Below, one piece after another: positions 3,033 to 47,290 of a DNA stretch of 47,807 nt; within the stretch, counting starts at the first letter, position 1; each line of letters opens with the position of its first letter. A model generated the notes under the pieces. The model saw only the letters and a list, made by a program, of their open reading frames with translations, was not told where the DNA came from and made no database searches. Source of the DNA: Thermoanaerobaculia bacterium. GTDB lineage: Bacteria; Acidobacteriota; Thermoanaerobaculia; Gp7-AA8. Both the position numbers and the translations under genes were made by a program. The stretch spans positions 1-47,807 of the forward strand of contig JBGPFD010000001.1 in NCBI GenBank assembly GCA_041483175.1. Direction: 5' to 3'.

Positions 3033-3059
3033 CGTGAGCGGCGTATTGTAGCCGAGCGA

Positions 3060-32406: not shown

Positions 32407-32422
32407 CGTGGCTCCTGTGACA

Positions 32423-32480
32423 TTGCCGGTTACCTGTTTCCGGAGAGTTCCGGCAACTGGCAACCGGGAACCGGCAACTT
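32423..32480. repeat. Inverted heptamer arrays filling the spacer between the two kinase genes.
   Basis: ttgccgg ttacctg tttccgg at 32423..32443. ccggcaa ctggcaa ccgggaa ccggcaa at 32450..32477. The outer units are perfectly complementary. The array ends 16 nt from ATG 32406. Confidence 0.75.
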
Positions 32481-33695
32481 CTAGTGGTCTCTCACGACAT
32501 AGCTACACGACGGATCGGCGCCGAAACGCACGACGTCTCCCGGTTTGAGTTTGGCGCGTTCGACGCGCGTGTTGTTGACGTAGGTTCCATTCGCTGATTT
32601 CAGATCCTCGAGCACGCAGGAGCTTCCGCTCAACGTGATCTTCGCGTGCCGGCGCGAGACCGCCGGATGGGGCAGCACGATCGAACAACTGCGATCGCGG
32701 CCCACCATCACGCTCTCTCCCTGCAGCGCGTGCTTCTCGTTGACTTCCGGCTTCACGTTCACCAGCAGCCACTGCGGAGTCGCGGATCCGGCCGGCAGGG
32801 ATCGCACGGGCGTGGGGATGGCGCTCTGCGTCGGAGTGTAGACCGGACGGAGGTTGTACTCTTCGAGCGCGTCGTAGAACGCGCGGGCGCTCTCGTAGCG
32901 GCCGTCGAGCCGCGGGTACATTGCACGCAGCACGATGGCCTCCAGGTCGGCGTCGATCTCCGGGCGGATGGCGCTCGGCGCCTGTTTCTCGCCGCGATAG
33001 ATGGCGTCGATCAGCTTCGGAAGCGAGCGGCTGTTGAAGGGAAGCGCGCCGGTCAGCATCTCGTACAACACGACGCCCGCAGAGTAGACATCGCTTTTCG
33101 CGCCGGCGTCCTTCGGCTCGCGAATCTGCTCCGGCGACATGTAGTGGGGAGTGCCGAGGAGGAAGCCTGATTTGGTCAGTACGGTCTGTCCCATCGCGGC
33201 ACCCTCTTTGATCTTGGCGATTCCGAAGTCGGTCACCTTCACCACGCCCGGTTTTTCGCTGATCAGATTCGCCGGCTTGATGTCCCGATGGACAATTCCC
33301 TTTCCGTGCGCGTAAACCAGCGCTTCGAGCATGCACTGGGCGATGCCGATCGCCTCGGTGATCGGAAGCGCTCCTTTTTCCGATAGCAGGATGTCGACCG
33401 GCGTTCCTTCGACGAACTCCATCACCAGCACGGCGTTGTTGGCGTTGTTGATGAATTCGTAGAAACGGGTGATGTAGCGGTGTCGAAGTTTCTCCAGGAT
33501 CTGCGCCTCTTTGATGAAGCGCTTTCGGGCCGTCACTTCGCCGGCCAACTCCTCCGACATGATCTTCAGCACCACGGCAAAATTCTCGGGAAGCAGCTCC
33601 TTGCGCGCCACCGTCCGCCCGACGAAGACGTGGCTCATTCCCCCTTCGCCGATCTCGCGCTCGATGCGATAGTTGCCGATGACGTCGCCGATCAT
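32481..33695 (-). CDS. Cytoplasmic Ser/Thr protein kinase with a C-terminal FHA domain.
   Basis: Kinase motifs are GEGGMSHVF, VVLKIM, HRDIKPANL, DFGIAK and SPEQ. The FHA part is VMVGRDRSCSIVLPHPAVSRRHAKITL...DLKSANGTYVNN. Confidence 0.9.
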   Translation of the reverse strand: MIGDVIGNYRIEREIGEGGMSHVFVGRTVARKELLPENFAVVLKIMSEELAGEVTARKRFIKEAQILEKLRHRYITRFYEFINNANNAVLVMEFVEGTPVDILLSEKGALPITEAIGIAQCMLEALVYAHGKGIVHRDIKPANLISEKPGVVKVTDFGIAKIKEGAAMGQTVLTKSGFLLGTPHYMSPEQIREPKDAGAKSDVYSAGVVLYEMLTGALPFNSRSLPKLIDAIYRGEKQAPSAIRPEIDADLEAIVLRAMYPRLDGRYESARAFYDALEEYNLRPVYTPTQSAIPTPVRSLPAGSATPQWLLVNVKPEVNEKHALQGESVMVGRDRSCSIVLPHPAVSRRHAKITLSGSSCVLEDLKSANGTYVNNTRVERAKLKPGDVVRFGADPSCSYVVRDH

Positions 33696-34336
33696 TTCAA
33701 AGCGCCCTCGTCATCCCAGTAGAAGCTTTCGTTGCACAGCGGCGTGAACAGGAAGCGATGCGAGCCAATGCGCACGATGTCGTTGGCGACGAGATCGCGC
33801 CGCGGCTCGATCTCCTGTTCGTTGACGTACGTGCCATTCGTGGAGTTGTGATCCATCAGGATGAAGCGCCGCTCTTCCGGGCGGAAGACGAGATCAGCGT
33901 GATGCGTGGAGGCCTGATCGTCGTTGATTGCAACATCCGACCGGTGGTCGCGTCCGAGAGTGTTCCTGCCGATGCGCACCGGGAATGATTCGCCGCGCGC
34001 GGTTCCATTGAGCCCCACCAGCCAGCCGACGACATAGCGCTTCGGTTGTGCCTCGGGCGGCCCGATCTTCTGCGCCGCGACCGTGCGCTCCATCGGCGGC
34101 GGCTGCACCGGCGCCGTTTCACGCCGCGGCGGCGCGGCGGGCGGGGGAACCGGGGTGGGGCGGCGCGGCTCGGGCGGGGTCGTGGGAGGGCTCGCGTCCT
34201 GTGAGCCGAAACGGCTCGGGCGAACCACCGGAATGTCCGACTCTTTCTCTACCGCCGGACAGTACGGACAGAGGTCCCACGACTCGTCGATGAAGTGTCC
34301 GTTTTCGCAGCGTTTATCAGCCACTGCCAGCCTCAC
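33692..34336 (-). CDS. FHA domain protein with an N-terminal zinc ribbon and a Pro-rich linker.
   Basis: CENGHFIDESWDLCPYC is the zinc ribbon. The FHA part is FPVRIGRNTLGRD...ASTHHADLVF...DHNSTNGTYVNE. GTG 34336 overlaps the upstream TGA (GTGA), and its own stop overlaps the next ATG (ATGA). Confidence 0.85.
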   Translation of the reverse strand: MRLAVADKRCENGHFIDESWDLCPYCPAVEKESDIPVVRPSRFGSQDASPPTTPPEPRRPTPVPPPAAPPRRETAPVQPPPMERTVAAQKIGPPEAQPKRYVVGWLVGLNGTARGESFPVRIGRNTLGRDHRSDVAINDDQASTHHADLVFRPEERRFILMDHNSTNGTYVNEQEIEPRRDLVANDIVRIGSHRFLFTPLCNESFYWDDEGALK

Positions 34337-35967
34337 GCGTGATAGGCGACCGCAATTGCGTTGCGACCCCCAAAATAAATGATGTCGCCGTCTTTGAGAT
34401 ACCGTTTGTCGATCTTCTGATCGTTGACGTACGTTCCATTGGACGAATTCCGATCGATCAGCAATACCTTGCCATCGATCGACACGACCTCGGCGTGGAG
34501 GCGCGAGACCTTCGGGTTTTCCAATACGATCTCACAAATCGACGATTCCCGCCCGATCCGGATTCCCGAACCGCCGAGCCCGAGGCGCTCCCCCGCCCGG
34601 TCGCCGTTCAGAATTGTGAAACGCCCCAGAAGCAACGGGACCTGGCTCGCCGTGGTGTCGCTTCCCTGCCGTCCCACCGGAGCCACGACCGTTTCCACCG
34701 TCTTCGCGGTCAGCAGATCTTTCGGGATGCGGTGGCGCCGCGAGGTCAGCGCGATGATCACCGTCACCAGCACCACCAGCGCGCCAACCCCGATGGCGCC
34801 GGTAATCAGAGGATGCAGCCGCCACATCGGCATCGACTGCAGCCCACGGTCAACATCGCGGCGGAAGCGGACCAGGTCGGGAGAGCTGGGAAAGAGGGCG
34901 CTCGACAGCGTCAGCTCTTCTTTCGCCACGGTCCATTTGCCGTCGACGGCAGCCTGCAGCGCCTTCCGCCAATGCCGGTTGAACTCTCCGCCGATGTTGA
35001 ACGCCAGGTGCGCCGCGCTCAGGAAATCCTTGGCCACGTTGATCGGGACGAGAAACTTGATCTGCTCCGCATCGCTTCGCCCCCAGGTGGAGATGCCGAC
35101 GACCTCACCATCGCGATTGACCGCCGGCCCGCCCGAGTTTCCGCGATAAATGCCGACGTTCGATTGGAACACCGGCGCGTTGTTGATGTCGCGTTTGATG
35201 GCGGTGATGGTGCCGTTGGCCAGCGTCGCTTCGAGATCGCTTTCGCGCGACAGCCAGCCGCCGATGATGTCGTCGGTACTGCTGGCCACGGCGGGATAGC
35301 CAATGGACCACACCGAATCGCCGACGCGAACGGCGTCGGAATCGCCGAGCTGCAGCGCCGGCAGGTCCTTTCGCCCGGCGACGCGCAGCAGCGCGAGATC
35401 GGCCCCGCGCTCGTTCAATGCGGGCGAGTAGCGCTCGACGCGGAACGGCAGCTTCTCGCCATTCGAGAGTTCGACCTCGTTGACGATGACGACGTGATCG
35501 AGCCGCCCCTTCGCGGCAAGCGCGAGCTCATGCCGCTCCAGCGCGTCGCCGCGATAGAGCCGCCGAAGCTCGTCGACCGGAAAATGCTTCAGCAGCGCGG
35601 AGATCGCTCCGTTCCGCAGCAGCTCCTTCTCCAGCGCGGCGTTGTCGCGTGTCTGCGCGATAACGTGCCCGCTGGTGAGAATCCAGCCGTCTGGATTGAT
35701 GATGAATCCGCTCCCTGACCCACCCGCCCCGGTCTCCACGGTGCTTTCCACCGTACCGTCACGCCAGGTCAGGCCGACTTCATGCGCGATGTCATCGAGC
35801 GCCTTCGCCGGATAATGAAACTGCGCCGTGGCGTAGGCGTTGATGCGCACCACCGCGGGCTTGACCGCGTATGCCATCTTCTGCACGTCGTCGAGACGCG
35901 ACACGTCGCGGCGGCAGGCAACAGCCACCAGCAACAGAAGGAGGAGGCGTCGGGAACCGGGAGACAT
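34333..35967 (-). CDS. Trypsin-like (S1/Trypsin_2) serine protease, one TM helix, then a C-terminal FHA domain.
   Basis: N-terminal signal/anchor LLLLLLVAVAC. Triad contexts are LTSGHV, DLALLRV and GNSGGPAV. The TM helix is LITGAIGVGALVVLVTVIIAL. The FHA part is IRIGRESSICEIVLENPKVSRLHAEVV...DRNSSNGTYVND. Confidence 0.85.
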   Translation of the reverse strand: MSPGSRRLLLLLLVAVACRRDVSRLDDVQKMAYAVKPAVVRINAYATAQFHYPAKALDDIAHEVGLTWRDGTVESTVETGAGGSGSGFIINPDGWILTSGHVIAQTRDNAALEKELLRNGAISALLKHFPVDELRRLYRGDALERHELALAAKGRLDHVVIVNEVELSNGEKLPFRVERYSPALNERGADLALLRVAGRKDLPALQLGDSDAVRVGDSVWSIGYPAVASSTDDIIGGWLSRESDLEATLANGTITAIKRDINNAPVFQSNVGIYRGNSGGPAVNRDGEVVGISTWGRSDAEQIKFLVPINVAKDFLSAAHLAFNIGGEFNRHWRKALQAAVDGKWTVAKEELTLSSALFPSSPDLVRFRRDVDRGLQSMPMWRLHPLITGAIGVGALVVLVTVIIALTSRRHRIPKDLLTAKTVETVVAPVGRQGSDTTASQVPLLLGRFTILNGDRAGERLGLGGSGIRIGRESSICEIVLENPKVSRLHAEVVSIDGKVLLIDRNSSNGTYVNDQKIDKRYLKDGDIIYFGGRNAIAVAYHA

Positions 35968-35979
35968 GGCAGCGGTGGT

Positions 35980-36876
35980 TTATCGTGAAGAACGCGGAGC
36001 AGAGGTGGTCATTCCCGTACCGGGGCGATCCTTCACTGTATCTTCAAAGGGAGCGTGGTCGTCGCGCGTCTCGTCGCCGGGCTGACCGGCGCGAACGACC
36101 CTGGCCACGATCACCGTCACGTTGTCGGGAGCGCCGCGCTCCAGCGCCAGGCGCACGAATTCGTCCGCGGCCGCCTGCTGCGGAAGCTTGCCAATCTTCC
36201 GGATCTCGTCTTCCTTGACCATGCCGTGCAGCCCGTCGCTGCACAGGATGAAGACATCGTTCTCGCGGACGTCGAGCGGCCCGCGGACGTCAATCTCCAC
36301 TTGTTCGCCAACCCCGATCGAGCGCTGCAGGACGTTCCGGCGCGGATGGTTTTCCGCCTCCTGCGACGTCAGCAGTCCCTCCCGCACCATCGTCGCTACC
36401 AGTGAGTGGTCCTCAGTCAGTTGTTTGATGGCATCGCCGCGGATGCCGTAGATGCGCGAGTCGCCGACGTGGGCGAACCACGCCTGCGATCCGCGGATGA
36501 CCAGCGCCGACGTCGTGGTGCCCATGCCGCGCAGATCGGCATTCGACTGTGCCTCGGAAAATACGCGCGCGTTCGCGCTGGCGAGGGCGTCGCGAAGCGA
36601 GGCCGCGACGTCTGCCGTCTCGCTGCCGAGGTATTGCGCCTTCACCGTTTCGCCTGCCAGGCGGGAGGCGGTCGCACCGCCCCGGTGGCCACCCATCCCG
36701 TCGGCCACGATCAGCAGCCGCCCGCCGGGATGACTGGCCGCCTCTTCGCGCGGCGTGGTGTACGTTCCGAAGTCCTGGTTTTCCGCGCGCACCCGCCCCA
36801 CGTCAGTCTTCAAGACTGCCTGCACGATGAGGCGATCAGTGGAGGTCACAGGTGCTGGCGCAGGTTGTTCGGTCAT
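35980..36876 (-). CDS. PP2C-family Ser/Thr phosphatase (Stp/PstP-like); first gene of the operon.
   Basis: DVGRVRAENQDF, IVADGMGGHRGG, HVGDSRIY, LCSDGL and DNVTVIV. Confidence 0.9.
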   Translation of the reverse strand: MTEQPAPAPVTSTDRLIVQAVLKTDVGRVRAENQDFGTYTTPREEAASHPGGRLLIVADGMGGHRGGATASRLAGETVKAQYLGSETADVAASLRDALASANARVFSEAQSNADLRGMGTTTSALVIRGSQAWFAHVGDSRIYGIRGDAIKQLTEDHSLVATMVREGLLTSQEAENHPRRNVLQRSIGVGEQVEIDVRGPLDVRENDVFILCSDGLHGMVKEDEIRKIGKLPQQAAADEFVRLALERGAPDNVTVIVARVVRAGQPGDETRDDHAPFEDTVKDRPGTGMTTSAPRSSR

Positions 36877-37001
36877 CCGATTGAACGGCTTGGAAGACTC
36901 GAGAACTCGGTCGTTCTATGTTGCTGAACGGTGGTCGATTATAGCGGCTTATTCGAGGTAAACCGCCAAAAGCAGGCAACATCCCGTACCCTTAGGAGTG
37001 C

Positions 37002-38423
37002 ATGCACGGCAGAGCGCGCCGGCGGCTCGGTGGGTGGATGTTACTGCTCGTCGCGGTGCTCGCCGTACGCGCCGCCGCGCAACAGCCAGCCGAAGCCGCC
37101 GCGCTCCAACAGGCCCAGAAGCTCGCCTGGAGCCGGCATTTCGCCGAAGCCGAACGGATCTATCGCCACTTGCTGCGGCAGTCGCCGAACTCGCGTGACG
37201 TGCGGGTCGGGCTCGCACGCGTTCTTCTGTGGGAAGGACGTTACCGCGAGGCGCGCACGATGTTTCTGCAGCTCGTGGCGCGGCATCCATCGGATGTCGA
37301 CGCCGCGGAGGGAGCGGCGACCGCTGCGTACTGGCAGGGCGACTTCCGCACCGCCGCGCGCGAATTCCGCGCCCTCGCCGCTGCCCACCCGGAACGGACG
37401 TCGGCGGTCAAGAGCCTGCACGACATCCTGCTCGCCACGCGTGGCAGCGAGCGCGTATTGCTTGACGCCACGAACGACAATCAGCCATACCGCCTGTGGC
37501 GTTCGGAGGCGGTTGCCTCCGTCTTTTCCGACCCGCTGACGCGATGGGATGTGACGGCGGGCGTCTGGCGCGCTGACAACCCAAGGCTCTCCGTGGTCCG
37601 CAGCGGCCCGTATGTAGTCGTCAGCAACGAAGTGGGGCTGCCTTGGCAGCGATTGACGATTACGACGAGCGCCGGCGTCCTCCGCTGGCCTGACGGGACG
37701 ACCCGACCGATCGGCGGAGTCGCGGCGCGACTGCGCACGTCGGCCACTTCGTCGATCGAAGCGGCCATCGACCACCGCGAACTGCTGCGCACCTCCACCG
37801 CAATCGGCGGTCGTCCCGCCGTCACGCGGATGCTCCTCAGCTGGAGCCGCTACGCCGAAAAAGAGTGGCTCGCCGGCTTCGAGTCAGGACGCCTGCAATA
37901 CTTCGATCGAAACCGCGGCTGGTACGTTCAAGGCTACGGCTTGTGGCCGGTAATGGGGCGCGGGCCGCTCACCGTCTTTGCCGGTGCTTCCGCCGCGCTG
38001 CGCGATACGCGCGACAGCAGGTTCTACATCGAAGCGATCGCGTCGGAGCGGTCGGGCTCGGAATTTCTCTACGCCTATCGCGGCGCGTACACGCCGTACT
38101 GGACGCCGCAACACCTGCAGGAAACGCGCGCGATCGTCACCGCGTCGGAGGCGGTCGCGCGAAACGCCACCATCAAAATCCAGGCAGAGGCCGGCGTTGC
38201 CCGTGACCGCGCGCAATCTTTCGGACCGTCGGAAGGACCCTCACCTCTCCCGTCGACGATCTTCGTCTTCGACTTTCAAAGGACATTCCACCCGACGCGA
38301 TTTTCCATCGGCGCATCGCTGGCGCTTTCTCCGGTCTACGCGCTGGAGCTGAGCGCAGAGCGAAACACGACCGTCTTCTACCGTGCGAAGGAGTTCCGTG
38401 CGACCGTGGTCCGACATCGCTGA
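37002..38423 (+). CDS. TPR-repeat protein with a putative C-terminal outer-membrane beta-barrel (PgaA/NfrA/YaiO-like exopolysaccharide porin candidate).
   Basis: aggag RBS and a signal peptide. There are three TPR-like repeats (AEAERIYRHLLRQSPNSRDVRVGLARVLLWEGRYREARTMF...). These are followed by about 300 aa of alternating beta-strand-like pattern. The barrel assignment is inferred from pattern and context, not from a motif. Confidence 0.5.
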   Translation: MHGRARRRLGGWMLLLVAVLAVRAAAQQPAEAAALQQAQKLAWSRHFAEAERIYRHLLRQSPNSRDVRVGLARVLLWEGRYREARTMFLQLVARHPSDVDAAEGAATAAYWQGDFRTAAREFRALAAAHPERTSAVKSLHDILLATRGSERVLLDATNDNQPYRLWRSEAVASVFSDPLTRWDVTAGVWRADNPRLSVVRSGPYVVVSNEVGLPWQRLTITTSAGVLRWPDGTTRPIGGVAARLRTSATSSIEAAIDHRELLRTSTAIGGRPAVTRMLLSWSRYAEKEWLAGFESGRLQYFDRNRGWYVQGYGLWPVMGRGPLTVFAGASAALRDTRDSRFYIEAIASERSGSEFLYAYRGAYTPYWTPQHLQETRAIVTASEAVARNATIKIQAEAGVARDRAQSFGPSEGPSPLPSTIFVFDFQRTFHPTRFSIGASLALSPVYALELSAERNTTVFYRAKEFRATVVRHR

Positions 38424-38424
38424 A

Positions 38425-39954
38425 ATGTTCCGCCATCGTCGGGCGGCGCCCGTGCGCTTGTGGGAGCGCGCGCTGCTGGGCGTTCTGCTCTTTCTGGGAT
38501 TGTGGAGCGTGATCTATTTCGGCTTCTGGTGGTTCCAGCTCGATCACGTGAATGAGCCGCTGCTGTTCGTGCTCCTGTCGCTTGCCACGTGGTACGGCGT
38601 TTTTCGGATGATGGTCGGCTGGTACAACGCCTTTCACATCGAGCAACCCGACCCGCTGCCGCCACCGGACGGCCTCTCCGTGGCCATCTTCACGACCTCG
38701 TCACCGGGCGAGCCGTACGAAATGTTCGTTCGCACTCTTGCCGCGGCGCGCGAGGTGCGTTACCCGCACACGACCTACCTGCTCGACGACACGCGCGATC
38801 CGCGATTCGCCCGACTGGCGGCCGAGATGGGAGCGGTGCATCTCGAGCTGATCGGAATCCCGGGCGCCAAGGCGGGAAAGATCAACGCGGCGCTGGAGCG
38901 AACCACCGAGGAGTTCATTCTGGTTCTCGACCCGGACCACATCCCGTTTCCGGAGTTTCTCGACCGCGTCCTCGGCTATTTCCACGACGAGCAGGTGGGC
39001 TTCGTTCAGGTCGCGCAGGCCTATCACAATGCCGGCGAGTCGTTCGTGGCGCGCGCGGCGGCGGAGCAGACCTTTTCCTTTTACGGCCCGATCATGCAGG
39101 GGATGCACGGAACGGGAACGGCGGTGGCCATCGGCGCAAACTGCACGTTCCGCCGCAGCGCGCTGCAGTCGATCGGCGGCCATGGGATCGGGCTGGCGGA
39201 AGATCTGGTCACCTCGATCCGCCTGCACGCCCGCGGGTGGAAATCGGTCTATGTGCCGGAGATCGTCTCGCGCGGGCTGGTGCCGTCGGACCTCGATTCC
39301 TTCCTCAAGCAACAGCTCAAGTGGTCGCGCGGCGTCCATGACGTCCTATTTCGCGAGTATCCTCGAGCATTCCGCCGGCTGACGGCCCACCAGAAAATTT
39401 CCTACTTCATGATCGGCAGCTACTACATCGTCGGCCTCACCTCGTTCATCTACATCACCATTCCGCTCGTCTATCTCTGGACCGGCCATCAACCGGCTGC
39501 CTTTCTTCTTTCCGAGTATGTCCAGCACGCGCTGCCGGTGGGACTTCTGGGCGTGGTGATCTACCGCTTCGTCCAGCGATGGCTTTGCGATCCGCTCCGC
39601 GAACGCGGCAGCCACTGGCGGGGTACGCTGATGAAGCTCGGCACCTGGAACGTCTACCTCAAAGGACTGGTTCTGGCGCTCCTCGGAGTCGCCGTTCCGT
39701 ACATTCCGACGGCGAAGGAACGAAAGCGCGGCCGTTTTTGGAAGCTCGCACGCGTGCCGATGGTCACCATCGCGTTGTCGCTGACCACGCTGGTCTGGAC
39801 CGCGTTCCGGCAGTTGTTCGTGCTGCCGGAATCGGAGGTGCGGATCACGACGGAAGTGACATTCGGCATGGTGGCGTTCACCATCATGAATACTGTATTG
39901 ATGAGCGGCAGGATTTACGCTGCCTGGCAGGATCGCGAGCGAGTCGAAGAATGA
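38425..39954 (+). CDS. Processive GT2 glycosyltransferase, cellulose-synthase-like, without a PilZ domain.
   Basis: Two N-terminal TM helices. Catalytic motifs are LLDDTRD, VLDPDH, GLAEDL (TED-like) and QQLKWSRG (QxxRW-like, with K in place of R). Multiple C-terminal TM helices. ATG 38425 lies 1 nt after the upstream stop. Confidence 0.85.
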   Translation: MFRHRRAAPVRLWERALLGVLLFLGLWSVIYFGFWWFQLDHVNEPLLFVLLSLATWYGVFRMMVGWYNAFHIEQPDPLPPPDGLSVAIFTTSSPGEPYEMFVRTLAAAREVRYPHTTYLLDDTRDPRFARLAAEMGAVHLELIGIPGAKAGKINAALERTTEEFILVLDPDHIPFPEFLDRVLGYFHDEQVGFVQVAQAYHNAGESFVARAAAEQTFSFYGPIMQGMHGTGTAVAIGANCTFRRSALQSIGGHGIGLAEDLVTSIRLHARGWKSVYVPEIVSRGLVPSDLDSFLKQQLKWSRGVHDVLFREYPRAFRRLTAHQKISYFMIGSYYIVGLTSFIYITIPLVYLWTGHQPAAFLLSEYVQHALPVGLLGVVIYRFVQRWLCDPLRERGSHWRGTLMKLGTWNVYLKGLVLALLGVAVPYIPTAKERKRGRFWKLARVPMVTIALSLTTLVWTAFRQLFVLPESEVRITTEVTFGMVAFTIMNTVLMSGRIYAAWQDRERVEE

Positions 39955-41120
39955 AAGCGAGAAAGCGCTACCAGATTGCGTTTTTCGCGCTCGGCTGGCT
40001 GATCGCCATCGGCCTGCTGTTCCAGTTCGGGCTGGGCGCCGGATTTCAGGCTGTCTACGATGAAATCGGCGACCGCGTGCGGCACATCGCGCAGCGGTTC
40101 TCCGACACCGAAGGCGACGTGGTCACCAGCGTCCGCCGCACTTCGCGCAGCGACTACCTCGCACCGCTGCGGCCGACGCTCTCCTCCGTAGCTGCGCTGC
40201 GGAATCCTTCGTTGATGCTATTTGGAGTCTACGACGGCGGCTTTCCCAACACCTTCGCTGGATTGGAAAAGTTCGAATCGGAAGTCAATTACAAGTTCCC
40301 GATCATTTCCTTTTATGTCGCCTGGGGCGACAAGCCCGCCGAGCAGTTCCCGACGCGCATGGTGGAGACGATCAACCGCATGGGATCGGTGCCGCTGATC
40401 ACCTGGGAACCGTGGGTCGTCGACTTCGATGAGCGAATCCGCAGCAATCTTCCGCGCGCGGCGGAACGCGAGTACGCCTGTCTGGCGGCGATCGCCCGCG
40501 GCGAGTACGACTTCTACATCGTGACCTGGGCGAAGGCGGCAGCGGCGTACCACAAGCCGATGTTTCTCCGCTTTGCGCACGAGATGAACGATCCGTATCG
40601 CTATCCGTGGGGCCCGCAGAACGGCAATCGTCCGGAGGACTTCATCGCCGCCTGGAAACACGTGCATCTGATTTTTCAGAAGATGGGAGCGGACAACGTG
40701 TTGTGGGTCTGGTCACCGCACATCTCCATGTCCTGGTTCGAGTACTACTACCCCGGGCCGGAGTTCGTCGATTGGATCGGCATCGGTGTCCTCAACTACG
40801 GCAACGTCGCCTCGTGGTCGCGCTGGTGGAGCTTTCATCAGATCCTGGAGAAGTCGTATCCGTCGCTGCTGAAGCTGAACGAGCCGATCATGATTTGCGA
40901 GTTCGGCACGCTGACCAAAGGTGGCAACGCGTACGAGTGGTACCGCCAGGCGTTCTACCACATCGATCACACCTATCACCGCGGTGTGCGGGCGATCGTG
41001 CTGTTCAACCAGGAGAACGACAACACCATGACCTCGCTGGCGCTCGACTGGAGCGTCAATCAGGATCCGAGCGCGCGCGCCCTCGTCGCCCAGCAGCTCG
41101 CGCAACACTCCGCGCTCTAG
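39951..41120 (+). CDS. Membrane-anchored glycoside hydrolase, GH26-like (beta-mannanase/beta-glucanase clan GH-A).
   Basis: ATG 39951 overlaps the synthase TGA (ATGA). The N-terminal anchor is IAFFALGWLIAIGLLF. FLRFAHEMN and PIMICEFG contain the two catalytic Glu contexts typical of GH26. Confidence 0.75.
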   Translation: MKARKRYQIAFFALGWLIAIGLLFQFGLGAGFQAVYDEIGDRVRHIAQRFSDTEGDVVTSVRRTSRSDYLAPLRPTLSSVAALRNPSLMLFGVYDGGFPNTFAGLEKFESEVNYKFPIISFYVAWGDKPAEQFPTRMVETINRMGSVPLITWEPWVVDFDERIRSNLPRAAEREYACLAAIARGEYDFYIVTWAKAAAAYHKPMFLRFAHEMNDPYRYPWGPQNGNRPEDFIAAWKHVHLIFQKMGADNVLWVWSPHISMSWFEYYYPGPEFVDWIGIGVLNYGNVASWSRWWSFHQILEKSYPSLLKLNEPIMICEFGTLTKGGNAYEWYRQAFYHIDHTYHRGVRAIVLFNQENDNTMTSLALDWSVNQDPSARALVAQQLAQHSAL

Positions 41121-43660
41121 ATCTGGATGGCCGCGTGCCGGGGCACCGGCGTCTCGGGCGGTTGCAGAAACGTCTTCTCCAGCATCGGGGCGGCGAGTGG
41201 AACGCTGATCAAAAAGCCCTGAATCTCGCGGCATCCGTGCTCCCGCAGAAACTCGCACTGCTCCTCGGTCTCCACGCCCTCCGCGACGGTGCGAAGCCCG
41301 AGCTGGTTGGCCACAAGGAGCACCGCTCTGACGATCGATTGATCGCTCGGCCTGGTGGTCACGTCGGCGACGAAGCTGCGGTCGACTTTGATCGTGTCGA
41401 CGGGGAACTGTTTCAGATAGCTCAGTGACGACTGCCCGGTTCCGAAATCGTCGATGGCGATACTGATCCCGATCTCGCGGAGGCGTCGAAGAATGCGCAG
41501 GCTGCGGTCGCTCTTCTGCACCGCCACGCTCTCCGTCAGCTCGAATTCAACCAGGCGCGGATCGAAACCGGTGCTCTTCAGGACTCGCTCGAACATTCCG
41601 ACGAAGTCGCGCTGATAGAGCTGCCGCGGTGAAACGTTAACCGCGATGCGCGGAGAGCGGTAACCCTGCCGCTGCCACGCCACTCCCTGCTCGCACGACA
41701 TCCGCAGGACGAGCGCGCCGAGCGCGTTGACCAATCCGGTGTGCTCAGCGGCCGGGATGAATCCGCTCGGCGGGACGATGCCGCGTTCCGGATGATTCCA
41801 GCGAACGAGCGCCTCCACGCCGACGAGCTTCCGATCGTCGATGTTCACCTGCGGCTGGAACCAGACCACGAACTCCTCGCGCTCGATGGCACGCCGCAGC
41901 TCCTCTTCGATCGTCAGGCGGCCGACCGCAGGCCCCGCGCGGCTGCAGAGCTCGATGGCGTTGCCGCCCGTCGCTTTCACACGGTACATGGCGCCGTCGG
42001 CGTTGCGGATCAGCGCTTCGGGCGTGCCCCCGTCCGCCGGGTAGACGGCCACGCCAATGCTGGTGGTGATGTGGAGCTCGTCGTCGTCGACCAGGAAGGG
42101 GCGTACGACCTCTCCGAGGATCTTGCCGGCGATTGCCTGCGCAGCGCGTTCGCCGTCGACATCAGTGAGCAGGATGAGGAACTCGTCGCCGCCGACGCGC
42201 GCCACGGTATCGCCTTCCCGGAGCGTCTCCGTCAGGCGCGCGGCGACTTTCTTCAGCAGCGCGTCGCCGACACCGTGTCCGAGCGTGTCGTTGACAGCCT
42301 TCAAATCGTCGAGGTCGAGAAACATCACCGCGAGCTGCTGATTGCGCCGCGAAGCGAGCGCCAGCGCGATGACCAGACGATCGAGGAAGAGCGCGCGATT
42401 GGGAAGATCGGTGAGCGAGTCGTGGAAGGCCTTGTGGGAGATCTCTTCCTCGGCCCGTTTGCGGTCGGTGATATCCAGCAGAATGCCTTCCAGCGTCGGT
42501 TCGGCTTCCTCCTGCGCCGGAATGAGACGGACGTTTTCCAGCGCCCACACCGCCCCATCATTGCGATCGCGGAGCTCCACCTCTTCATTGACCACCGCGC
42601 CGTCGGCGTAGAGCCGCCGCATGACGGAGTCGCGATCGCGCGGATTCATGTAGGCAATCGCGCCGCGGTCGGCCAGGAACTGTTCGCGCGACTCGTACCG
42701 GAAGATTCGCGCGCAGGCGTCGTTGCAACTAATGATCTTGCCATCGGTCGAGGCGATGTAAACGCCGGCCAGATTGCGGTTGAACAGCAGCTCGTATCGT
42801 TCCTCCGAGCTCTTCAGCGCGCTCTGCGCGCGCCGACGCTCGGTAATCTCATGCATCAGCTCGCGCGCGCGTTCTTCGACACGATCCTCGAGCGTGCGAT
42901 TGAACGATTCCATCTCGCCGCGCGCTTCCGCCAGGCGGTCGAGCATGGTGTTGAACGATCGCGCGAGCTGCCCCACCTCATCCTGCGAATCAACATCGGC
43001 CCGGCTGGCCAGTGCTCCGGCGGCGATCTGCTCCGACGTCTGCGCGATGCGCTGCAGCGGCCCGGTGATGAGATTACTCAAGACGAAGACCGCCAGCACG
43101 GCAATGCCGAACACGATCAGCGTCACCAACGTCACCGTGGCCCGGCTTCGCGAGATTCCGTTCTGCACGCGGTCGAGCGAGAAGCCGATCACCAGCGTCC
43201 CCACCTGTTTTCCGCGATAGCGCACCGCGGTCGTCGTCTGGTAGACCTTGCCATCACCGGAAAACGACCCCTGCGTTTCGCTCGGCGTGCCGGTCGCCGT
43301 GCCGCCGAGGATCGGTGTGGAATGAACCGCGGCGGGCGGTTTTGCGAACGGGCCCGCAGAGGCGGCGACCAGCTCGTTGAAGCTGGCGAACACGTGCCCA
43401 TTTCGCTCGAGCAGCTCGTAGTAGACGAGATCGGGGTTCCTGCGCAGCGTGGCCAGCGCCTCGGCCACTGACACTCGATCGGGCGTCCGCAGCCCGGGAG
43501 CCAGGCTGATTGCCGTCACGTCGGTGACCACAGAGGCTTTCTGCGCCACCGAGTCGAGCGCCTGATGCTTCAGTGCCGCCGGAAAATAGACAAAGACCGC
43601 CGCGGAAACCAGCGCCAGGATGCCCGTCATCACCAGCGCTAGCTTGGTCCGGAGGTGCAT
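41117..43660 (-). CDS. Membrane sensor with HAMP, PAS, GGDEF and EAL domains (c-di-GMP synthase/phosphodiesterase).
   Basis: Two TM helices and HAMP (GPLQRIAQTSEQIAAG). PAS (YELLFNRNLAGVYIAS). An intact RVGGDEFLIL. An intact EAL domain (GVEALVRW, DDFGTG, KVDRSF). I chose ATG 43660 (MHLRTKL). Confidence 0.9.
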   Translation of the reverse strand: MHLRTKLALVMTGILALVSAAVFVYFPAALKHQALDSVAQKASVVTDVTAISLAPGLRTPDRVSVAEALATLRRNPDLVYYELLERNGHVFASFNELVAASAGPFAKPPAAVHSTPILGGTATGTPSETQGSFSGDGKVYQTTTAVRYRGKQVGTLVIGFSLDRVQNGISRSRATVTLVTLIVFGIAVLAVFVLSNLITGPLQRIAQTSEQIAAGALASRADVDSQDEVGQLARSFNTMLDRLAEARGEMESFNRTLEDRVEERARELMHEITERRRAQSALKSSEERYELLFNRNLAGVYIASTDGKIISCNDACARIFRYESREQFLADRGAIAYMNPRDRDSVMRRLYADGAVVNEEVELRDRNDGAVWALENVRLIPAQEEAEPTLEGILLDITDRKRAEEEISHKAFHDSLTDLPNRALFLDRLVIALALASRRNQQLAVMFLDLDDLKAVNDTLGHGVGDALLKKVAARLTETLREGDTVARVGGDEFLILLTDVDGERAAQAIAGKILGEVVRPFLVDDDELHITTSIGVAVYPADGGTPEALIRNADGAMYRVKATGGNAIELCSRAGPAVGRLTIEEELRRAIEREEFVVWFQPQVNIDDRKLVGVEALVRWNHPERGIVPPSGFIPAAEHTGLVNALGALVLRMSCEQGVAWQRQGYRSPRIAVNVSPRQLYQRDFVGMFERVLKSTGFDPRLVEFELTESVAVQKSDRSLRILRRLREIGISIAIDDFGTGQSSLSYLKQFPVDTIKVDRSFVADVTTRPSDQSIVRAVLLVANQLGLRTVAEGVETEEQCEFLREHGCREIQGFLISVPLAAPMLEKTFLQPPETPVPRHAAIQI

Positions 43661-43758
43661 CCGGGAAATGAATACCAACCGGGGGCGTTTCACTGTCCGA
43701 TCGATTAATCCTACTAGAATCGCGTTCGGCAGGCTGTGCGAATAACAGGTCCTTCCAT

Positions 43759-45576
43759 ATGGCACAAAAGCCCCGCGTTGCGGCAGTCGCTCTCACCGCT
43801 CTTTTCGTCGCCACGGCGGCCGCAGCGTCGACTATTACTGGAACCGTGTCGAATGAAACGCACGTCGTCCTGACCTCGATGGTCGTGGCCGCGTACGACA
43901 TGAACGGATCGCTGCAGGGGACGGCGACGACCGATTCCGCCGGCCACTACGTGCTCGAAATCCAGCCGGGCAATTACCGGATTCTGGCCTACGACCCCAA
44001 CGGATCGTTTGCCACCACATTCGACGGCGACGCCGACTCGTTCGACACCTCGCCGATCATCTCCGTCGCGGCGCAGCCCACCGTGCTCGATTTCGCACTC
44101 CGCCAGGGCGGGAACGTCACGGGAAAGGTCTTTGCGGCCAACAACAGGCCGCTCGCGCAGGCGACCGTCGCGGCGTACAACCTGTCGGGAACGAGGCGCA
44201 GCTTCGCGCAGTGCAACGACACGGGATCCTATTCGATCGTTCTTCCGCCCGGCCAATACAAAATCGTGGCGTACGACGATGCCGGATTCTTCGCTCCTCG
44301 CTTCTACCCCGATCTGTACGGCTTCAACGACGCCTCCCCGGTGACGATCACCGCCGGCGGTACGACCGCCGGCAAGGACATTCATCTCGAATTTGCCGCG
44401 CACCTCGGGGGAACCGTCACCGACTCTGATAGCGGTGCGAACCTGGCCCGAATGACGGTGTACGCGTATGACAACACCGGAACGAACGTCGCCCAGGCGA
44501 CCACGAACAGCAACGGGCAATTCGTGCTGAATGTACCGAGCGGCTCGTTCCGCCTGGTGGCCACGGATGGCAATCTCGTCTACGCGACGGGATATCTCGG
44601 CGATACGCAATCGTTCGATCAGTCGCTGGCCGTCTCAGTCGCCTCGGCTCAGAGCCGTCTCGGCATGGAAATCCCTCTGCACCGCGGTGGCACCGTCACG
44701 GGACGAGTGACCGGCAGTGGCGGAGCGCTGCTCCCAAACATCGCCGTGGCCGCCTACAACCCCGACGGATCCCAACGAATCGCCACGCATACCGATGGCT
44801 CGGGTGCCTACAAGCTCGTCCTTTCCGGTGGAGCCTTTCGGCTTGCCGCGTTCGATGAGCAGCTCACCTACGCAACGCAGTTCTATCCGACGCAAAACAC
44901 ATTTCGCGCGGCGACTGACATTTTGGTCACTCCGCCGGCAACGATCGATTCGATCGACTTCGCGCTGATTCACGGCGCAAAGATCAGCGGAACAGTGACC
45001 GAGTCGGGAACCGGCGTGACTGCGTTCGCGGTCAGCGTCGCGGCATACGATGAGGCTGGTGATGCCGTGAATAGCACCATCACCAGCGCAACAGGCAACT
45101 ACATCCTGGTGGTGCCGCCGGGAACCTACAAAGTCGTGGCCTTCGACATGGCGCTGCGGTACGCCACGGCCTACGGTGGCGGCGAGCCGAACTACGAAGC
45201 CGCGGCGGTCTACACCGTGAACAGCGATCGGCCCGAGACGCTGAATTTCACGGTCACGCGCGGGGTACGGGTGGGCGGAAGCGTGACCGACGCGGCGAGT
45301 CTCCCGCTCTCCGGCATCGAGATCCGAGCGCTCGACCTCGCCGGAAATCGAGTGGCCACCACCATGGCCACCGCCGGGGGCTTCACCCTGGTCCTGATCC
45401 CCGGCAGTTACAAGCTGCTGGCCGCCGACCTGCTCGCACACTATGGTAATATTTACTATAGCAGCTCGGTCACATTCGGAGGCGCGACGACTGTCATCGT
45501 ACAGTTCGGAGCGCCGGTTCCTCCCATCAGTTTCATGCTGTCGCCGCACTTGCGCCGGCGAGCGGCTCCGCACTGA
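43759..45576 (+). CDS. Secreted protein made of six tandem CarboxypepD_reg-like (Ig-like beta-sandwich) repeats.
   Basis: It has a signal peptide. Repeats of about 92 to 100 aa start near residues 27, 118, 217, 310, 408 and 505. Each shows G(T/K/S)V(T/F)...TD..G.Y.L.(L/V).PG.Y(K/R)(I/L/V)(L/V)A.D. Confidence 0.7.
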   Translation: MAQKPRVAAVALTALFVATAAAASTITGTVSNETHVVLTSMVVAAYDMNGSLQGTATTDSAGHYVLEIQPGNYRILAYDPNGSFATTFDGDADSFDTSPIISVAAQPTVLDFALRQGGNVTGKVFAANNRPLAQATVAAYNLSGTRRSFAQCNDTGSYSIVLPPGQYKIVAYDDAGFFAPRFYPDLYGFNDASPVTITAGGTTAGKDIHLEFAAHLGGTVTDSDSGANLARMTVYAYDNTGTNVAQATTNSNGQFVLNVPSGSFRLVATDGNLVYATGYLGDTQSFDQSLAVSVASAQSRLGMEIPLHRGGTVTGRVTGSGGALLPNIAVAAYNPDGSQRIATHTDGSGAYKLVLSGGAFRLAAFDEQLTYATQFYPTQNTFRAATDILVTPPATIDSIDFALIHGAKISGTVTESGTGVTAFAVSVAAYDEAGDAVNSTITSATGNYILVVPPGTYKVVAFDMALRYATAYGGGEPNYEAAAVYTVNSDRPETLNFTVTRGVRVGGSVTDAASLPLSGIEIRALDLAGNRVATTMATAGGFTLVLIPGSYKLLAADLLAHYGNIYYSSSVTFGGATTVIVQFGAPVPPISFMLSPHLRRRAAPH

Positions 45577-45610
45577 GGAGCTGCGGCGTGGCCGCGCTCG
45601 GCGGACCCGC

Positions 45611-45616
45611 TATAAT
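45611..45616 (+). promoter_or_regulatory. Candidate -10 box (TATAAT) 15 nt upstream of the cyclase ATG.
   Basis: ccgcTATAATcgaaggcctccacatATG. Confidence 0.3.
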
Positions 45617-45631
45617 CGAAGGCCTCCACAT

Positions 45632-47290
45632 ATGGAATCGCTCCAGATCCATTACGTCGACCTCGGCGTCCAGCGGTTGGCCGACCTCAACGGAGAGATG
45701 TCCATCGGCCGCACCGAGGGGAACGATCTCGTCCTCAACCACCCCTCGGTATCGCGCAAGCATGCCCGTCTCGAGTTGCGCAACGAGGTGTGGTGGGTCG
45801 TCGATCTGAAATCGACCAACGGCGTCAAGGTGAACGGCAATCTGGTCACCGAGGCGCAGATCAATCCGGGCGACCAGATCTCTATCGGCTCGGTGCAGCT
45901 CGAGCTCAAACCGCAGCCCTCCGTGAATTTTAGCAACGAGTCGATGTTCGACAATCCATCGGGAACGGTCATTCGCCGGATCGCCGATTTCAATTCGGAG
46001 TTCGGCCTCGATCTCGGCGAGGCGGCCAAGCCGATCCCGCGGATTCCCTCCGAGCCGGGGCTGAAAAAAACCGAGGCCGAGGTCTCACGCGAAAAAATCT
46101 TCCAGGTGCTGGTGCAAGTGGCGAAGGCGCTGCTGCAGAGCGACGACCTCAATAGCCTGCTCAACACGGTCATGGCGATGATCTTCAAGTACCTGCCGGT
46201 CGAGCGCGGGCTGCTGATTCTGTTCGACGACGAAGGCAACCCGGTGCCGAAAGTCACCAAGTTCATCGAGGGGGCGGACGCCACCGACATCCCGATCTCC
46301 CGCACGATCCTGAAGATGGTCGCCCAGCAGCAGATCGCGCTGATGACCTCCAACGCCCTCGAGGACGCGCGGCTGCTCGGCGGCAAATCGATCGCCATTC
46401 ATGGGATTCGCTCGGCGATGTGCTGCCCGCTGTGGAATCGGAACCGGGTGATCGGCGCGGTGCAGGTCGACTCGCCGATCCACATCGGCCGCTTCACGGA
46501 GGAGGACCTCGACCTGCTCACCGCGCTAGCTAATTTCGCCGCCGTGGCCATCGAGCGCGCGCAGCTCTCGGAAAAAGTGGAACAGGAGCAGAAGATCCGC
46601 GCACGCATGGAGCGCTATCACTCCCCCGCCGTCGTCGACGAGATCGTCAAGGGATCCATCTCCACCGACGAGGGCGAGGTTCGCAACGCCGATCTGTCGA
46701 TCCTCTTCGCCGACATCTCCGGGTTCACCGCCGTGTCGGAAACGAAGAAACCGGAAGAAGTCGCCGAGTTTCTGTCGCACTTTTTCTCGTGCGCGGTGGA
46801 ATCGATCTTCGCCTACGGCGGCACGCTCGATAAATTCATCGGCGACGCGGTGATGGCTTTCTTCGGCGCGCCCCTTCCGCAGGAGGATCACGCCGACCGC
46901 GCCGTGCTCACCGGCCTCATGCTTCAGCGGCTGGTCGCCGAGTGGAACGAGGAGCGCGAGAAGAGCAGCCTGCCGCTGGTCCGCGTGCGGGTGGGCATCA
47001 ACAGCGGCCCCGCGGTCGTTGGGAACGTCGGCACGGAGAAACGCGTCGACTATACGGTGCTCGGAAGCTCCGTCAACATCGCCTCGCGCCTCGAGAGCAG
47101 CGTGGCCAAGCCGGGGCAGGTAGTCATCTCCCAGAACACTCTGGATCGCATCATCGGTAGTTTCAACACCGAACCGCTCGGCGAGTTCGCCTTGCGCGGG
47201 CTGCAACAGAAGATGCCGGTCTTCGCCGTCATCGGCAGCGGCGAACAGATGAAGACCTCGCCGCAGACACTCCAGGCGACCAGGGTGTAG
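45632..47290 (+). CDS. FHA-GAF-class III adenylate/guanylate cyclase.
   Basis: The FHA part is MSIGRTEGNDLVLNHPSVSRKHARLEL...DLKSTNGVKVNG. A central GAF-like region follows. The cyclase motifs are ILFADISGFTAVSE, KFIGDAVMAFFGAP and YTVLGSSVNIASRLES. I chose ATG 45632, because the track ORF start overlaps the previous gene. Confidence 0.85.
   Translation: MESLQIHYVDLGVQRLADLNGEMSIGRTEGNDLVLNHPSVSRKHARLELRNEVWWVVDLKSTNGVKVNGNLVTEAQINPGDQISIGSVQLELKPQPSVNFSNESMFDNPSGTVIRRIADFNSEFGLDLGEAAKPIPRIPSEPGLKKTEAEVSREKIFQVLVQVAKALLQSDDLNSLLNTVMAMIFKYLPVERGLLILFDDEGNPVPKVTKFIEGADATDIPISRTILKMVAQQQIALMTSNALEDARLLGGKSIAIHGIRSAMCCPLWNRNRVIGAVQVDSPIHIGRFTEEDLDLLTALANFAAVAIERAQLSEKVEQEQKIRARMERYHSPAVVDEIVKGSISTDEGEVRNADLSILFADISGFTAVSETKKPEEVAEFLSHFFSCAVESIFAYGGTLDKFIGDAVMAFFGAPLPQEDHADRAVLTGLMLQRLVAEWNEEREKSSLPLVRVRVGINSGPAVVGNVGTEKRVDYTVLGSSVNIASRLESSVAKPGQVVISQNTLDRIIGSFNTEPLGEFALRGLQQKMPVFAVIGSGEQMKTSPQTLQATRV

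Follow-up and report, generated by a model that had tools for sequence, protein, structure and literature searches.

The stretch of DNA analysed here, 47,807 nucleotides from a member of the Thermoanaerobaculia (Acidobacteriota) and called the window in what follows, carries at positions 37002-41120 of the forward strand three long open reading frames (ORFs) that together occupy about 4.1 kb. We call them g1, g2 and g3, and conclude that they are very probably an operon for synthase-dependent exopolysaccharide secretion in a reduced form, with a porin in the outer membrane, a processive glycosyltransferase in the inner membrane and a membrane-anchored hydrolase in the periplasm. The polymer is harder to name: taken by itself, a beta-glucan containing 1,3 linkages is a possible assignment, while the best overall explanation of the locus, which takes in both the secretion system and the 1,3-containing beta-glucan, is rated fairly probable as a compromise between the two.

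To our knowledge, only a handful of synthase-dependent systems are understood (cellulose, poly-N-acetylglucosamine or PNAG, alginate, Pel, Nfr and BgsBA), and all of them come from Proteobacteria or Firmicutes. Thermoanaerobaculia are known mainly from soil metagenome bins. In the bacterial cellulose synthase, the subunit BcsB and the PilZ switch are thought to be essential; the compact three-protein system described here would operate without either of them, and is always paired or fused with a lichenase-type hydrolase. Its parts are the following:

36877..37001, intergenic: 125 nucleotides between the divergent gene of a PP2C phosphatase and g1, the presumed promoter site
37002..38423, + strand: g1, predicted outer-membrane porin with tetratricopeptide repeats (TPRs), 473 amino acids; TPR matches in Pfam, AlphaFold2 model and Foldseek
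38398..39954, + strand: g2, predicted inner-membrane processive GT2 synthase-translocase, 518 amino acids from GTG 38398 or 509 from ATG 38425
39951..41120, + strand: g3, predicted membrane-anchored periplasmic GH26 hydrolase of the lichenase type, 389 amino acids; Pfam GH26 and match to CtLic26A

The ORFs lie where an earlier note, made by a model from the letters alone, had placed the three genes. A motif AGGAG at 36994-36998 stands immediately 5' of the ATG of g1, whose stop codon TGA, at 38421-38423, is followed after one base by the ATG at 38425. The note had described g1 and g2 as separated by this single nucleotide. The gap is literally present, but the start of g2 is most likely GTG 38398, 27 nucleotides upstream, in which case g2 overlaps g1 by 26 nucleotides. 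Four observations argue for the upstream start: homologues of g2 are mostly 518-521 amino acids long; they share a Trp and acidic residues at positions that precede the window ATG (consensus MxxWxDDAEIFRHRR); in the window, GGAG at 38390-38393 precedes the GTG by four bases, and translation from that GTG gives VRPWSDIAEMFRHRR; and in a relative, L001, the called g1 and g2 likewise overlap by 26 nucleotides. The other junction is as the note had it, since g2 and g3 share the ATGA at 39951-39954. Under either start of g2, the translational packing of the three genes is tight.

The first gene encodes what we read, on its model, as a miniature of the TPR-porin class. It begins with a Sec signal peptide (residues 1-26, nucleotides 37002-37079), continues with about 3.5 TPRs (residues 30-145, nucleotides 37089-37436), and ends in a predicted beta-barrel (residues 149-471, nucleotides 37446-38414). 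Pfam recognizes only the N-terminal third, with TPR families at residues 33-140 (TPR_19, TPR_14 and, weakly, TPR_Slam); the remaining 320 or so residues, those of the barrel, match no Pfam or NCBIfam family. The AlphaFold2 model, built with 75 homologues, has a mean predicted local distance difference test (pLDDT) of 93.3 and consists of the signal helix, the TPR helices and a barrel of about 18 strands (16 or 18). Its best Foldseek matches in the PDB are E. coli BcsC (9b8a, E 1e-14; also 9b8h and 6tzk), the barrel of PgaA (4y25) and PelB (9h80), and generic barrels follow at much weaker scores. The TPR-barrel architecture proposed in the note thus holds, and the model is not that of a soluble protein. 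The likeness to BcsC, PgaA and PelB is structural only, below the cut-offs of the sequence models: NCBIfam gives weak matches, confined to the TPR part, with 34.5 bits for PgaA against a cut-off of 366, and 19 bits for BcsC against 858.

The second gene resembles the bacterial cellulose synthase in sequence and in fold. Pfam matches it to the GT2 and Cellulose_synt families, and its best sequence matches among solved structures are BcsA of Rhodobacter (E 6e-36) and of E. coli (E 6e-29), then plant CesA. NCBIfam ranks CelA first, at scores far under the cut-offs (TIGR03030, 151.7 against 699.1 bits; PRK11498, 119.3 against 992). The AlphaFold2 model (pLDDT 80, predicted TM-score 0.82) has six transmembrane helices, distributed 2+4: two helices precede the GT-A domain, which is followed by an interface helix with the motif QQLKW, two helices, a second interface helix with a loop, and the last two helices before the end of the chain. 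Foldseek aligns this model with E. coli BcsA at a TM-score of 0.84 over the query, with CesA and hyaluronan synthases next, so that it groups with processive synthases. We thus agree with the note that g2 is a processive GT2 enzyme: as modelled, it is a synthase of the BcsA fold with its own translocation channel. The motifs of g2, all on the + strand and with residues counted from the ATG at 38425, are:

residues 94-97, nucleotides 38704-38715: PGEP
residues 119-122: LLDD
residues 169-172, nucleotides 38929-38940: DPDH (the DxD motif)
residues 258-260, nucleotides 39196-39204: AED, the TED motif without its Thr, as in other GT2 enzymes
residues 296-300, nucleotides 39310-39324: QQLKW
residues 426-431, nucleotides 39700-39717: YIPTAK, gating-loop-like, at the position of FxVTxK

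The predicted chain of g2 ends about 7 residues past its last transmembrane helix, with no match to MshEN or to PilZ, the C-terminal domain that carries RxxxR and D/NxSxxG in BcsA. At the equivalent of residue E371 of BcsA, the Glu of its autoinhibitory salt bridge with PilZ, g2 has a Ser in the sequence alignment with the Rhodobacter and E. coli enzymes (RsBcsA and EcBcsA), as is consistent with a missing PilZ brake. No BcsB family match was found in the operon, in the annotated ORFs of the window, or within 10 kb of the locus in L001. A C-terminus made only of transmembrane helices, the lack of these receptors and of BcsB, and the reading QQLKW in place of QxxRW had all been pointed out in the note; each of them stands, and the last proves to be a family signature.

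This family is a distinct and large one. The exact GT2 of the window was not on record in public assemblies. Relatives of g2 at 68-88% identity all come from Thermoanaerobaculia metagenome bins, and those at 42-48% from Fibrobacterota (Chitinispirillaceae, Chitinivibrionales) and Bacteroidota. The motif QQLKW is invariant in all of the 60-odd relatives recovered from genomes of the three phyla. Other canonical motifs of BcsA are replaced as well, again across the three phyla: PxYNEP by TTxxPGEPYEMF, AKAGN by AKAGK(I/V)N, and VQTP(H/Q) by VQV(A/V)QxY(H/Y)N; the family also has the motif AEQT(F/Y)xFYGP in the IF1 region. We placed 16 representatives in a rough neighbour-joining tree (Poisson distances, 200 bootstrap replicates) with E. 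coli K-12 BcsA, PgaC and NfrB, and with RsBcsA, AtCrdS and SmBgsA extracted from S1 Fig of PMC6821405. The 16 representatives are monophyletic in 200 of the 200 replicates, and BcsA, CrdS and BgsA group together, with the family excluded, in 88% of them. In pairwise comparisons, g2 of the window is 30% identical to RsBcsA (E 3e-36), 29% to BgsA (6e-31), 28% to CrdS (4e-20) and 24% to PgaC (2e-10), and has no significant similarity to NfrB (E 0.7). The phylogenetic placement that the note had called for thus yields a clade of its own, outside BcsA, CrdS and BgsA.

These results bear directly on the possibility that the operon is a cellulose system, making a beta-1,4-glucan, in which a GH26 endoglucanase has replaced BcsZ while BcsB and PilZ were lost. 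Such a system would explain why BcsA is the closest solved relative in both sequence and fold, why CelA is the best NCBIfam match, and why the residues equivalent to the acceptor-stacking F301 and Y302 are BcsA-like (FYG); swapping of hydrolase families in cellulose operons is also on record, for the GH5 enzyme CcsZ that stands in for the GH8 enzyme BcsZ in clostridia (PMC7710045). However, the CelA score remains far under its cut-off of 699, several BcsA motifs are replaced, the synthase falls in a monophyletic clade outside BcsA, CrdS and BgsA, and the hydrolases that accompany it, a lichenase-type GH26 and a GH158-like domain, come from families characterised on 1,3-containing glucans. We consider cellulose rather unlikely.

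The third gene passes the cut-off of the Pfam family Glyco_hydro_26 with 35.8 bits against 20.2. Among solved structures it is closest to the lichenase CtLic26A (2bv9), the GH26 module of CelH from Clostridium thermocellum, with E 2e-30 across the entire catalytic domain. The motifs HE(A)N and (A)EF of CtLic26A align with HE(M)N and (C)EF of g3, in a catalytic domain that extends over residues 91-380 approximately, and this alignment identifies the two putative catalytic residues, both on the + strand:

nucleotides 40581-40583: acid/base E211
nucleotides 40899-40901: nucleophile E317

Both Glu are conserved in 61 of 61 relatives, and the membership in GH26 announced in the note is well founded. 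A profile built from close and distant members of the g3 family separates the possible relatives: it scores 173 bits (E 8e-50) against CtLic26A over the full domain, 52.5 bits against the best mannanase, and at most 46 bits against 1,3- and mixed-linkage xylanases. Judged by these scores, g3 belongs to the GH26 enzymes of the CtLic26A or lichenase type, and is nearer to them than to mannanases or xylanases. At its N-terminus, a basic stretch precedes a hydrophobic helix of 19 residues (residues 9-27, nucleotides 39975-40031), which looks more like a signal anchor than like a cleaved signal peptide. A homologue search with this GH26 sequence returned just close Thermoanaerobaculia relatives, annotated as 'glycosyl hydrolase' or 'hypothetical'.

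The three genes have remained together over large evolutionary distances. Conservation was counted over 50 Thermoanaerobaculia loci, each test being limited to the loci with enough flank. In every informative locus the order g1-g2-g3 is kept, which answers the synteny check suggested in the note: g1 directly precedes the GT2 gene, in the same orientation, in 42 of 42, and g3 directly follows it in 46 of 46. Identity to the window ranges over 68-88% for the GT2, 59-85% for the GH26 and 30-65% for g1; such uneven divergence is usual where the catalytic core is conserved and the envelope parts evolve faster.

Beyond Thermoanaerobaculia, the association of synthase and hydrolase often takes the form of a fusion. 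An exhaustive scan of 1.84 billion cluster representatives with the GT2 of the window yields 1065 proteins at E<1e-30. Among the best 150 of these 1065, about 115 carry QQxKW, 94 reach a length of 900 amino acids or more, and in 62 the GT2 is followed by a GH26 domain that can be recognised as such. Fused forms seem to make up most of the representative clusters of the family. Two Bacteroidota genomes give complete examples, Algoriphagus aestuariicola JCM 31546 (L062:5914-9837) and one other (L063:5953-9933), with GT2 and GH26 in a single ORF of 1307-1326 amino acids. In the hydropathy profile of the first, the six helices of the GT2 are followed by a seventh, at residues 522-540, between GT2 and GH26. 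This helix would move the C-terminus to the periplasm and so place the GH26 outside the cytoplasm; it would be the equivalent of the anchor of g3. The Bacteroidota fusions have a third domain that matches GH158 (6PAL, E 5e-23; 9oro, 2e-21), and a second GH158-like gene is adjacent to the fusion in both loci. The structure 6PAL is that of BuGH158, a characterised endo-beta-1,3-glucanase (PMC7157763). No GH158-like sequence occurs in the window.

The three genes might also be neighbours by chance, or unrelated in function, g3 being for instance a glycanase that scavenges nutrients. This would have to be reconciled with overlapping reading frames, with an order that is invariant in about 50 genomes where identity of g1 and g3 falls to 30-60%, and with a GT2-GH26 pair that is found in three phyla, at least 62 of the 150 best representative clusters having it as a fusion. 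The fusions in particular effectively refute chance adjacency, to which we give hardly any credence.

The fusions also suggest another role for the hydrolase. GH26, a family of clan GH-A, is a retaining enzyme, and thus able to transglycosylate. The GH26 domain could act mainly as a transglycosylase or cyclase, as the GH17 domain of NdvB does, and the product would then be short or cyclic glucans kept in the periplasm. A PilZ-less BcsA-like GT2 coupled to a periplasmic clan GH-A domain is indeed the architecture of NdvB and Orphan, for which a cyclic beta-1,3-glucan is proposed (PMC10237404); most members of our family are fused in such a way, and near both Bacteroidota loci a porin gene is missing. 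In the Thermoanaerobaculia operon, however, the BcsC-like porin is always present (42/42) and would be pointless for a periplasmic product. NdvB also has another family of GH and another arrangement of its domains, the GT2 coming before the GH in our family. This alternative seems very unlikely.

Returning to the secretion system, we propose that the three proteins cooperate in the following way. In the inner membrane, g2 would polymerise a nucleotide-sugar on its cytoplasmic GT-A domain, and thread the beta-linked chain, as it grows, through the channel formed by its own six helices, in the manner of BcsA but free of a PilZ brake and of BcsB. Held at the periplasmic face by its single N-terminal helix, and probably packed against the synthase, g3 would use a retaining active site, of the lichenase GH26 type, to trim, release or proof-read the chain. 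The chain would then be taken by the short TPR arm of g1 and passed through its outer-membrane barrel, similar to those of BcsC, PgaA and PelB. The polymer would most likely be an unbranched beta-glucan, either mixed-linkage 1,3;1,4 or rich in 1,3 linkages, rather than pure cellulose, PNAG or mannan, and output would probably be tied to cyclic di-GMP (c-di-GMP) through a conserved neighbouring sensor with GGDEF and EAL domains. Since GT2-GH26 fusions exist in which a transmembrane helix links the two domains, we infer by analogy that g2 and g3 are in contact as a 1:1 complex in the organism of the window. It is tempting to add that g3 may take toward its synthase the role that the anchor helix and periplasmic domains of BcsB have toward BcsA.

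The preference for a 1,3-containing beta-glucan comes from the hydrolases: both of the families recruited to the synthase, the lichenase-type GH26 and the GH158-like domain, are characterised on such glucans. As for the donor, no sugar-nucleotide genes are found among the annotated ORFs of the window, which fits a housekeeping donor such as UDP-glucose. We do not extend this assumption to the whole family, because its nucleotide-contact motifs are altered and because, in a subgroup formed by four Fibrobacterota loci and one Thermoanaerobaculia locus of a paralogous type, genes of the CDP-glucose pathway lie directly upstream of TPR-GT2-GH26:

L051:2256-5034 (Thermoanaerobaculia, paralogue-type), L057:2203-5118, L059:2183-5108 and L061:92-2905 (Fibrobacterota): glucose-1-phosphate cytidylyltransferase, CDP-glucose 4,6-dehydratase and SDR
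L056:3134-4231 (Fibrobacterota): only the dehydratase scored

This arrangement hints at a CDP-linked (6-deoxy)hexose donor in the subgroup. In L051, a full TPR-barrel gene of the g1 type follows on the opposite strand.

The same genes lend some weight to a polymer that would not be a glucan at all. It might be a beta-mannan, a xylan or a polymer of 6-deoxyhexoses, and its donor, instead of a UDP-sugar, for example a CDP- or GDP-sugar. GH26 is mostly a family of mannanases and also holds 1,3-xylanases, and the changes in the nucleotide-contact motifs of BcsA extend throughout the family. On the other side, the lichenase outscores every mannanase and xylanase by about 120 bits with the GH26 profile, some 50 Thermoanaerobaculia loci, that of the window included, have no sugar-nucleotide genes beside the operon, and the GH158-like partner points to a glucan. 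We find a non-glucan polymer unlikely. The note had left a choice between a beta-mannan and a mixed-linkage beta-glucan: the mixed-linkage or 1,3-containing glucan is now favoured, and the mannan disfavoured, by the profile scores of 173 against 52.5 bits and by the fused GH158-like domain.

Several observations weigh against an exported 1,3-containing beta-glucan, or against parts of the mechanism that we propose for it. On the side of the polymer, identity of g3 to CtLic26A is only about 30%, so that the transfer of substrate is uncertain, and the GH family alone is not decisive, cellulose operons using different ones (GH8 for BcsZ, GH5 for CcsZ; PMC7710045). Residue positions have been proposed to separate 1,4- from 1,3-forming synthases (PMC6821405): in our family they are mixed, with Q as in CrdS and BgsA at QxPH/Q and Y as in BcsA at Y302, and we dropped them as a means of calling the linkage. 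On the side of the donor, there are the CDP-glucose genes and the family-wide change of PxYNEP to TTxxPGEP and of the R of QxxRW to K. On the side of export, the TPR arm of g1 is very short compared with those of BcsC, PgaA and PelB, which makes it harder to see how it bridges the periplasm, and porin genes are missing near the two Bacteroidota fusions. On the side of regulation, scans for sigma-70-like promoters and for terminators gave nothing above chance, an Rfam search of the window and of the region upstream of g1 found no RNA and no c-di-GMP riboswitch, and Pfam and NCBIfam detect in g1-g3 no PilZ, MshEN, GIL or degenerate GGDEF/EAL receptor.

A wider reading starts from the family rather than from the operon. 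The synthases would form an unnamed large family of the BcsA fold, without PilZ and BcsB, that makes a beta-1,3-containing beta-glucan, exported in Thermoanaerobaculia by a mini BcsC-like porin. Its signature would be TTxxPGEPYEMF, AKAGK, VQVxQxYxN and QQLKW, along with a lichenase-type GH26 as obligate partner or fused domain, to which Bacteroidota add a GH158-like domain; the membrane-anchored GH26 would replace BcsB as the periplasmic partner of the synthase. We put this reading forward tentatively, as a conceivable one. In a bolder version still, the altered motifs and the CDP-glucose genes of relatives would mean that the family uses a donor other than a UDP-sugar.

The distant loci display further variations. 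In L055, from Chitinispirillaceae, an MBOAT gene and an AlgX-like SGNH gene (989-3563) precede TPR-GT2-GH26, and the locus also adds a TPR-only protein, a beta-propeller protein after the GH26, and unassigned proteins of about 400 amino acids; this gene set suggests an O-acetylated polymer and a split export apparatus. In L052, L060 and L064, the upstream ORFs are similar in size and order to those of L055.

Public annotations of family members are generic: 'glycosyltransferase', 'cellulose synthase (UDP-forming)', 'tetratricopeptide repeat protein' or 'glycosyl hydrolase'. Searches of the literature on GT2+GH26 synthase operons, on PilZ-less cellulose synthases of Acidobacteria and on new synthase-dependent systems returned no description of the arrangement; an Actinoplanes cluster with a GH26 gene is unrelated, as it belongs to a Wzx/Wzy pathway. 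A separate observation concerns Sinorhizobium meliloti pSymB, where L067:3288-5243 is an unannotated BcsA-like GT2 with QEFQW for QxxRW and LAED for TED, which scores as well against the GT2 of the window as RsBcsA does (131 against 132 bits). Considered as a candidate for BgsA, it was rejected, having QEFQW and the wrong length and residues.

We now turn to the genes that surround the operon, of which two are conserved with it:

41117..43765, - strand: convergent HAMP-PAS-GGDEF-EAL sensor, from Pfam and motifs
43759..45576, + strand: secreted protein with six CarboxypepD_reg (transthyretin-like) repeats, 605 amino acids, from Pfam

The stop codon TAG of g3, at 41118-41120 on the + strand, overlaps that of the sensor gene, at 41117-41119 on the - strand, in the palindrome CTAG (41117-41120). 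This leaves no space for a terminator, and transcripts of both genes would overlap there with their 3' ends; in relatives, the spacing between g3 and the convergent gene is often just 1-60 nucleotides. A convergent GGDEF-EAL copy lies at most 3.4 kb from g3 in 30 of 31 loci, being the immediate neighbour in 23, and the six-repeat protein, too, is a conserved neighbour of the operon, in 30 of 31. The word minimal, used in the note, thus suits the three genes of the window, but not their constant company nor the distant relatives with extra genes. The sensor of the window has intact GGDEF, RxxD I-site, EAL and DDFGTG motifs and is likely a source or sink of c-di-GMP for the system; these intact motifs and the conserved adjacency make a link to c-di-GMP plausible. 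The six-repeat protein could be a surface, matrix or glycan-binding partner.

If a regulatory site is to be sought in the synthase, a candidate is the Arg-rich cytoplasmic motif W..(D/E)..(I/L)F(R/T)HRRA that precedes the first transmembrane helix of g2 (38398-38470): it is kept in the Thermoanaerobaculia clade (L004-L045) and absent from distant relatives.

On the upstream side, a chain of tightly overlapping signalling genes occupies 29651-36876 of the - strand. The kinase, FHA and PP2C genes were ruled out as part of the system, since they adjoin the operon in just 8 of 29 loci. The remaining annotated features are:

30673-32463, - strand: Ser/Thr kinase
32481-33695, - strand: ORF whose counterpart in L001 is annotated as kinase-FHA
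33692-34336, - strand: FHA protein
34333-35967, - strand: trypsin-like protease with a transmembrane segment and an FHA domain
35980-36876, - strand: PP2C phosphatase
45443-47290, + strand: FHA-GAF-class III adenylate/guanylate cyclase, after the repeat protein and at the same position in L001
960-3032, - strand: ORF of 690 amino acids whose sole Pfam match is the GreA/GreB transcript-cleavage factor, at residues 541-682

The last of these ORFs has an N-terminal extension of about 540 residues without an assigned family. Two others, 15590-17434 (+ strand, 614 amino acids) and 29651-30676 (- strand, 341 amino acids), have a coding-like GC content at third codon positions and no Pfam match at E<1e-5.

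If the polymer is indeed a 1,3-containing beta-glucan, the operon would represent a new biosynthetic route to an industrially interesting polymer, a marker gene set by which matrix-producing soil Acidobacteria could be recognised, and, at about 4.1 kb, a very small model for the coupling of synthase, hydrolase and porin. The family-wide reading would go further: it would be the first case of a synthase-dependent system that delivers a mixed-linkage or curdlan-like glucan through a porin, and this glucan would be a candidate for a major matrix polymer in soil Acidobacteria, which are abundant. Interest would rise if the polymer turned out to be a 1,3-glucan or one of mixed linkage, or with a donor that is not a UDP-sugar, and the fused form is carried by a cultured relative, Algoriphagus aestuariicola JCM 31546.

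It remains to compare the operon with known systems. The closest in logic is the cellulose system Bcs (BcsA-BcsB-BcsZ-BcsC) of Proteobacteria: both have a BcsA-fold GT2 with a channel and a gating loop, a periplasmic endoglycanase, a TPR-barrel porin of which BcsC is the best structural match, and, next to the operon, a gene for a c-di-GMP enzyme. The window operon differs in having neither BcsB nor PilZ, and a hydrolase of family GH26 instead of GH8; g2 has two N-terminal helices where BcsA has four, and g1 about 3.5 TPRs where the TPR region of BcsC is far longer (the whole BcsC model has 1157 positions). The motifs QQLKW, PGEP and VQVxQ stand in place of QxxRW, YNEP and QTPH, and BcsA is not part of the GT2 clade. 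Two acetylated-cellulose operons, clostridial CcsABZ(HIJ) and Pseudomonas Wss, are comparable in that the hydrolase family is swappable (GH5 for CcsZ), and in that L055 too adds MBOAT and AlgX-like genes; however, both keep BcsB or CcsB and PilZ, and acetylation genes are missing from the window operon.

The comparison with BgsBA-TolC of Sinorhizobium and Rhizobium is of interest for the product, BgsBA being the only Gram-negative bacterial pathway shown to make a 1,3;1,4-beta-glucan (PMC5567048, PMC13438883). There too the synthase is BcsA-like and PilZ-less, and its polymer is cleaved by hydrolases of the type found in the window. BgsA has a 139-residue C-terminal tail that binds c-di-GMP, and BgsB is a membrane-fusion partner (PMC5567048), whereas g2 has no such tail and the operon no gene for a membrane-fusion protein. 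Export proceeds there through the membrane-fusion protein and TolC, here presumably through a BcsC-like porin; the BgsBA operon has no hydrolase; and g2, 29% identical to BgsA, does not group with it.

With NdvB and Orphan of pseudomonads (PMC10237404), the family shares a PilZ-less BcsA-like GT2 coupled to a periplasmic clan GH-A domain and, in its fused members, the absence of BcsB. NdvB has a GH17 domain that precedes its GT2, makes a cyclic product that stays in the periplasm, and comes without a porin gene; in our family the order is GT2, transmembrane helix, GH26 (then GH158), and Thermoanaerobaculia add a porin.

Pga and Pel follow the same overall logic, with a periplasmic hydrolase acting on the nascent polymer and with the barrels of PgaA and PelB among the top structural matches of g1. 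The details differ: PgaC is 24% identical to g2 (E 2e-10, 55 bits against a cut-off of 422) and its polymer is PNAG; PelF is a GT4 enzyme and Pel is rich in N-acetylgalactosamine; the modifying deacetylases are different, and the c-di-GMP receptors of those systems, PgaCD and PelD, have no counterpart detected in g1-g3. The resemblance to Bcs and Pga that the note had perceived is thus real at the level of the parts, a BcsA-like synthase, a porin like BcsC, PgaA and PelB, and a periplasmic hydrolase. The operon would work like Bcs, Pga and Pel yet fails membership in each of them; it belongs to an uncharacterised and widespread family with a clear signature, of which soil Acidobacteria carry an unusually compact form.

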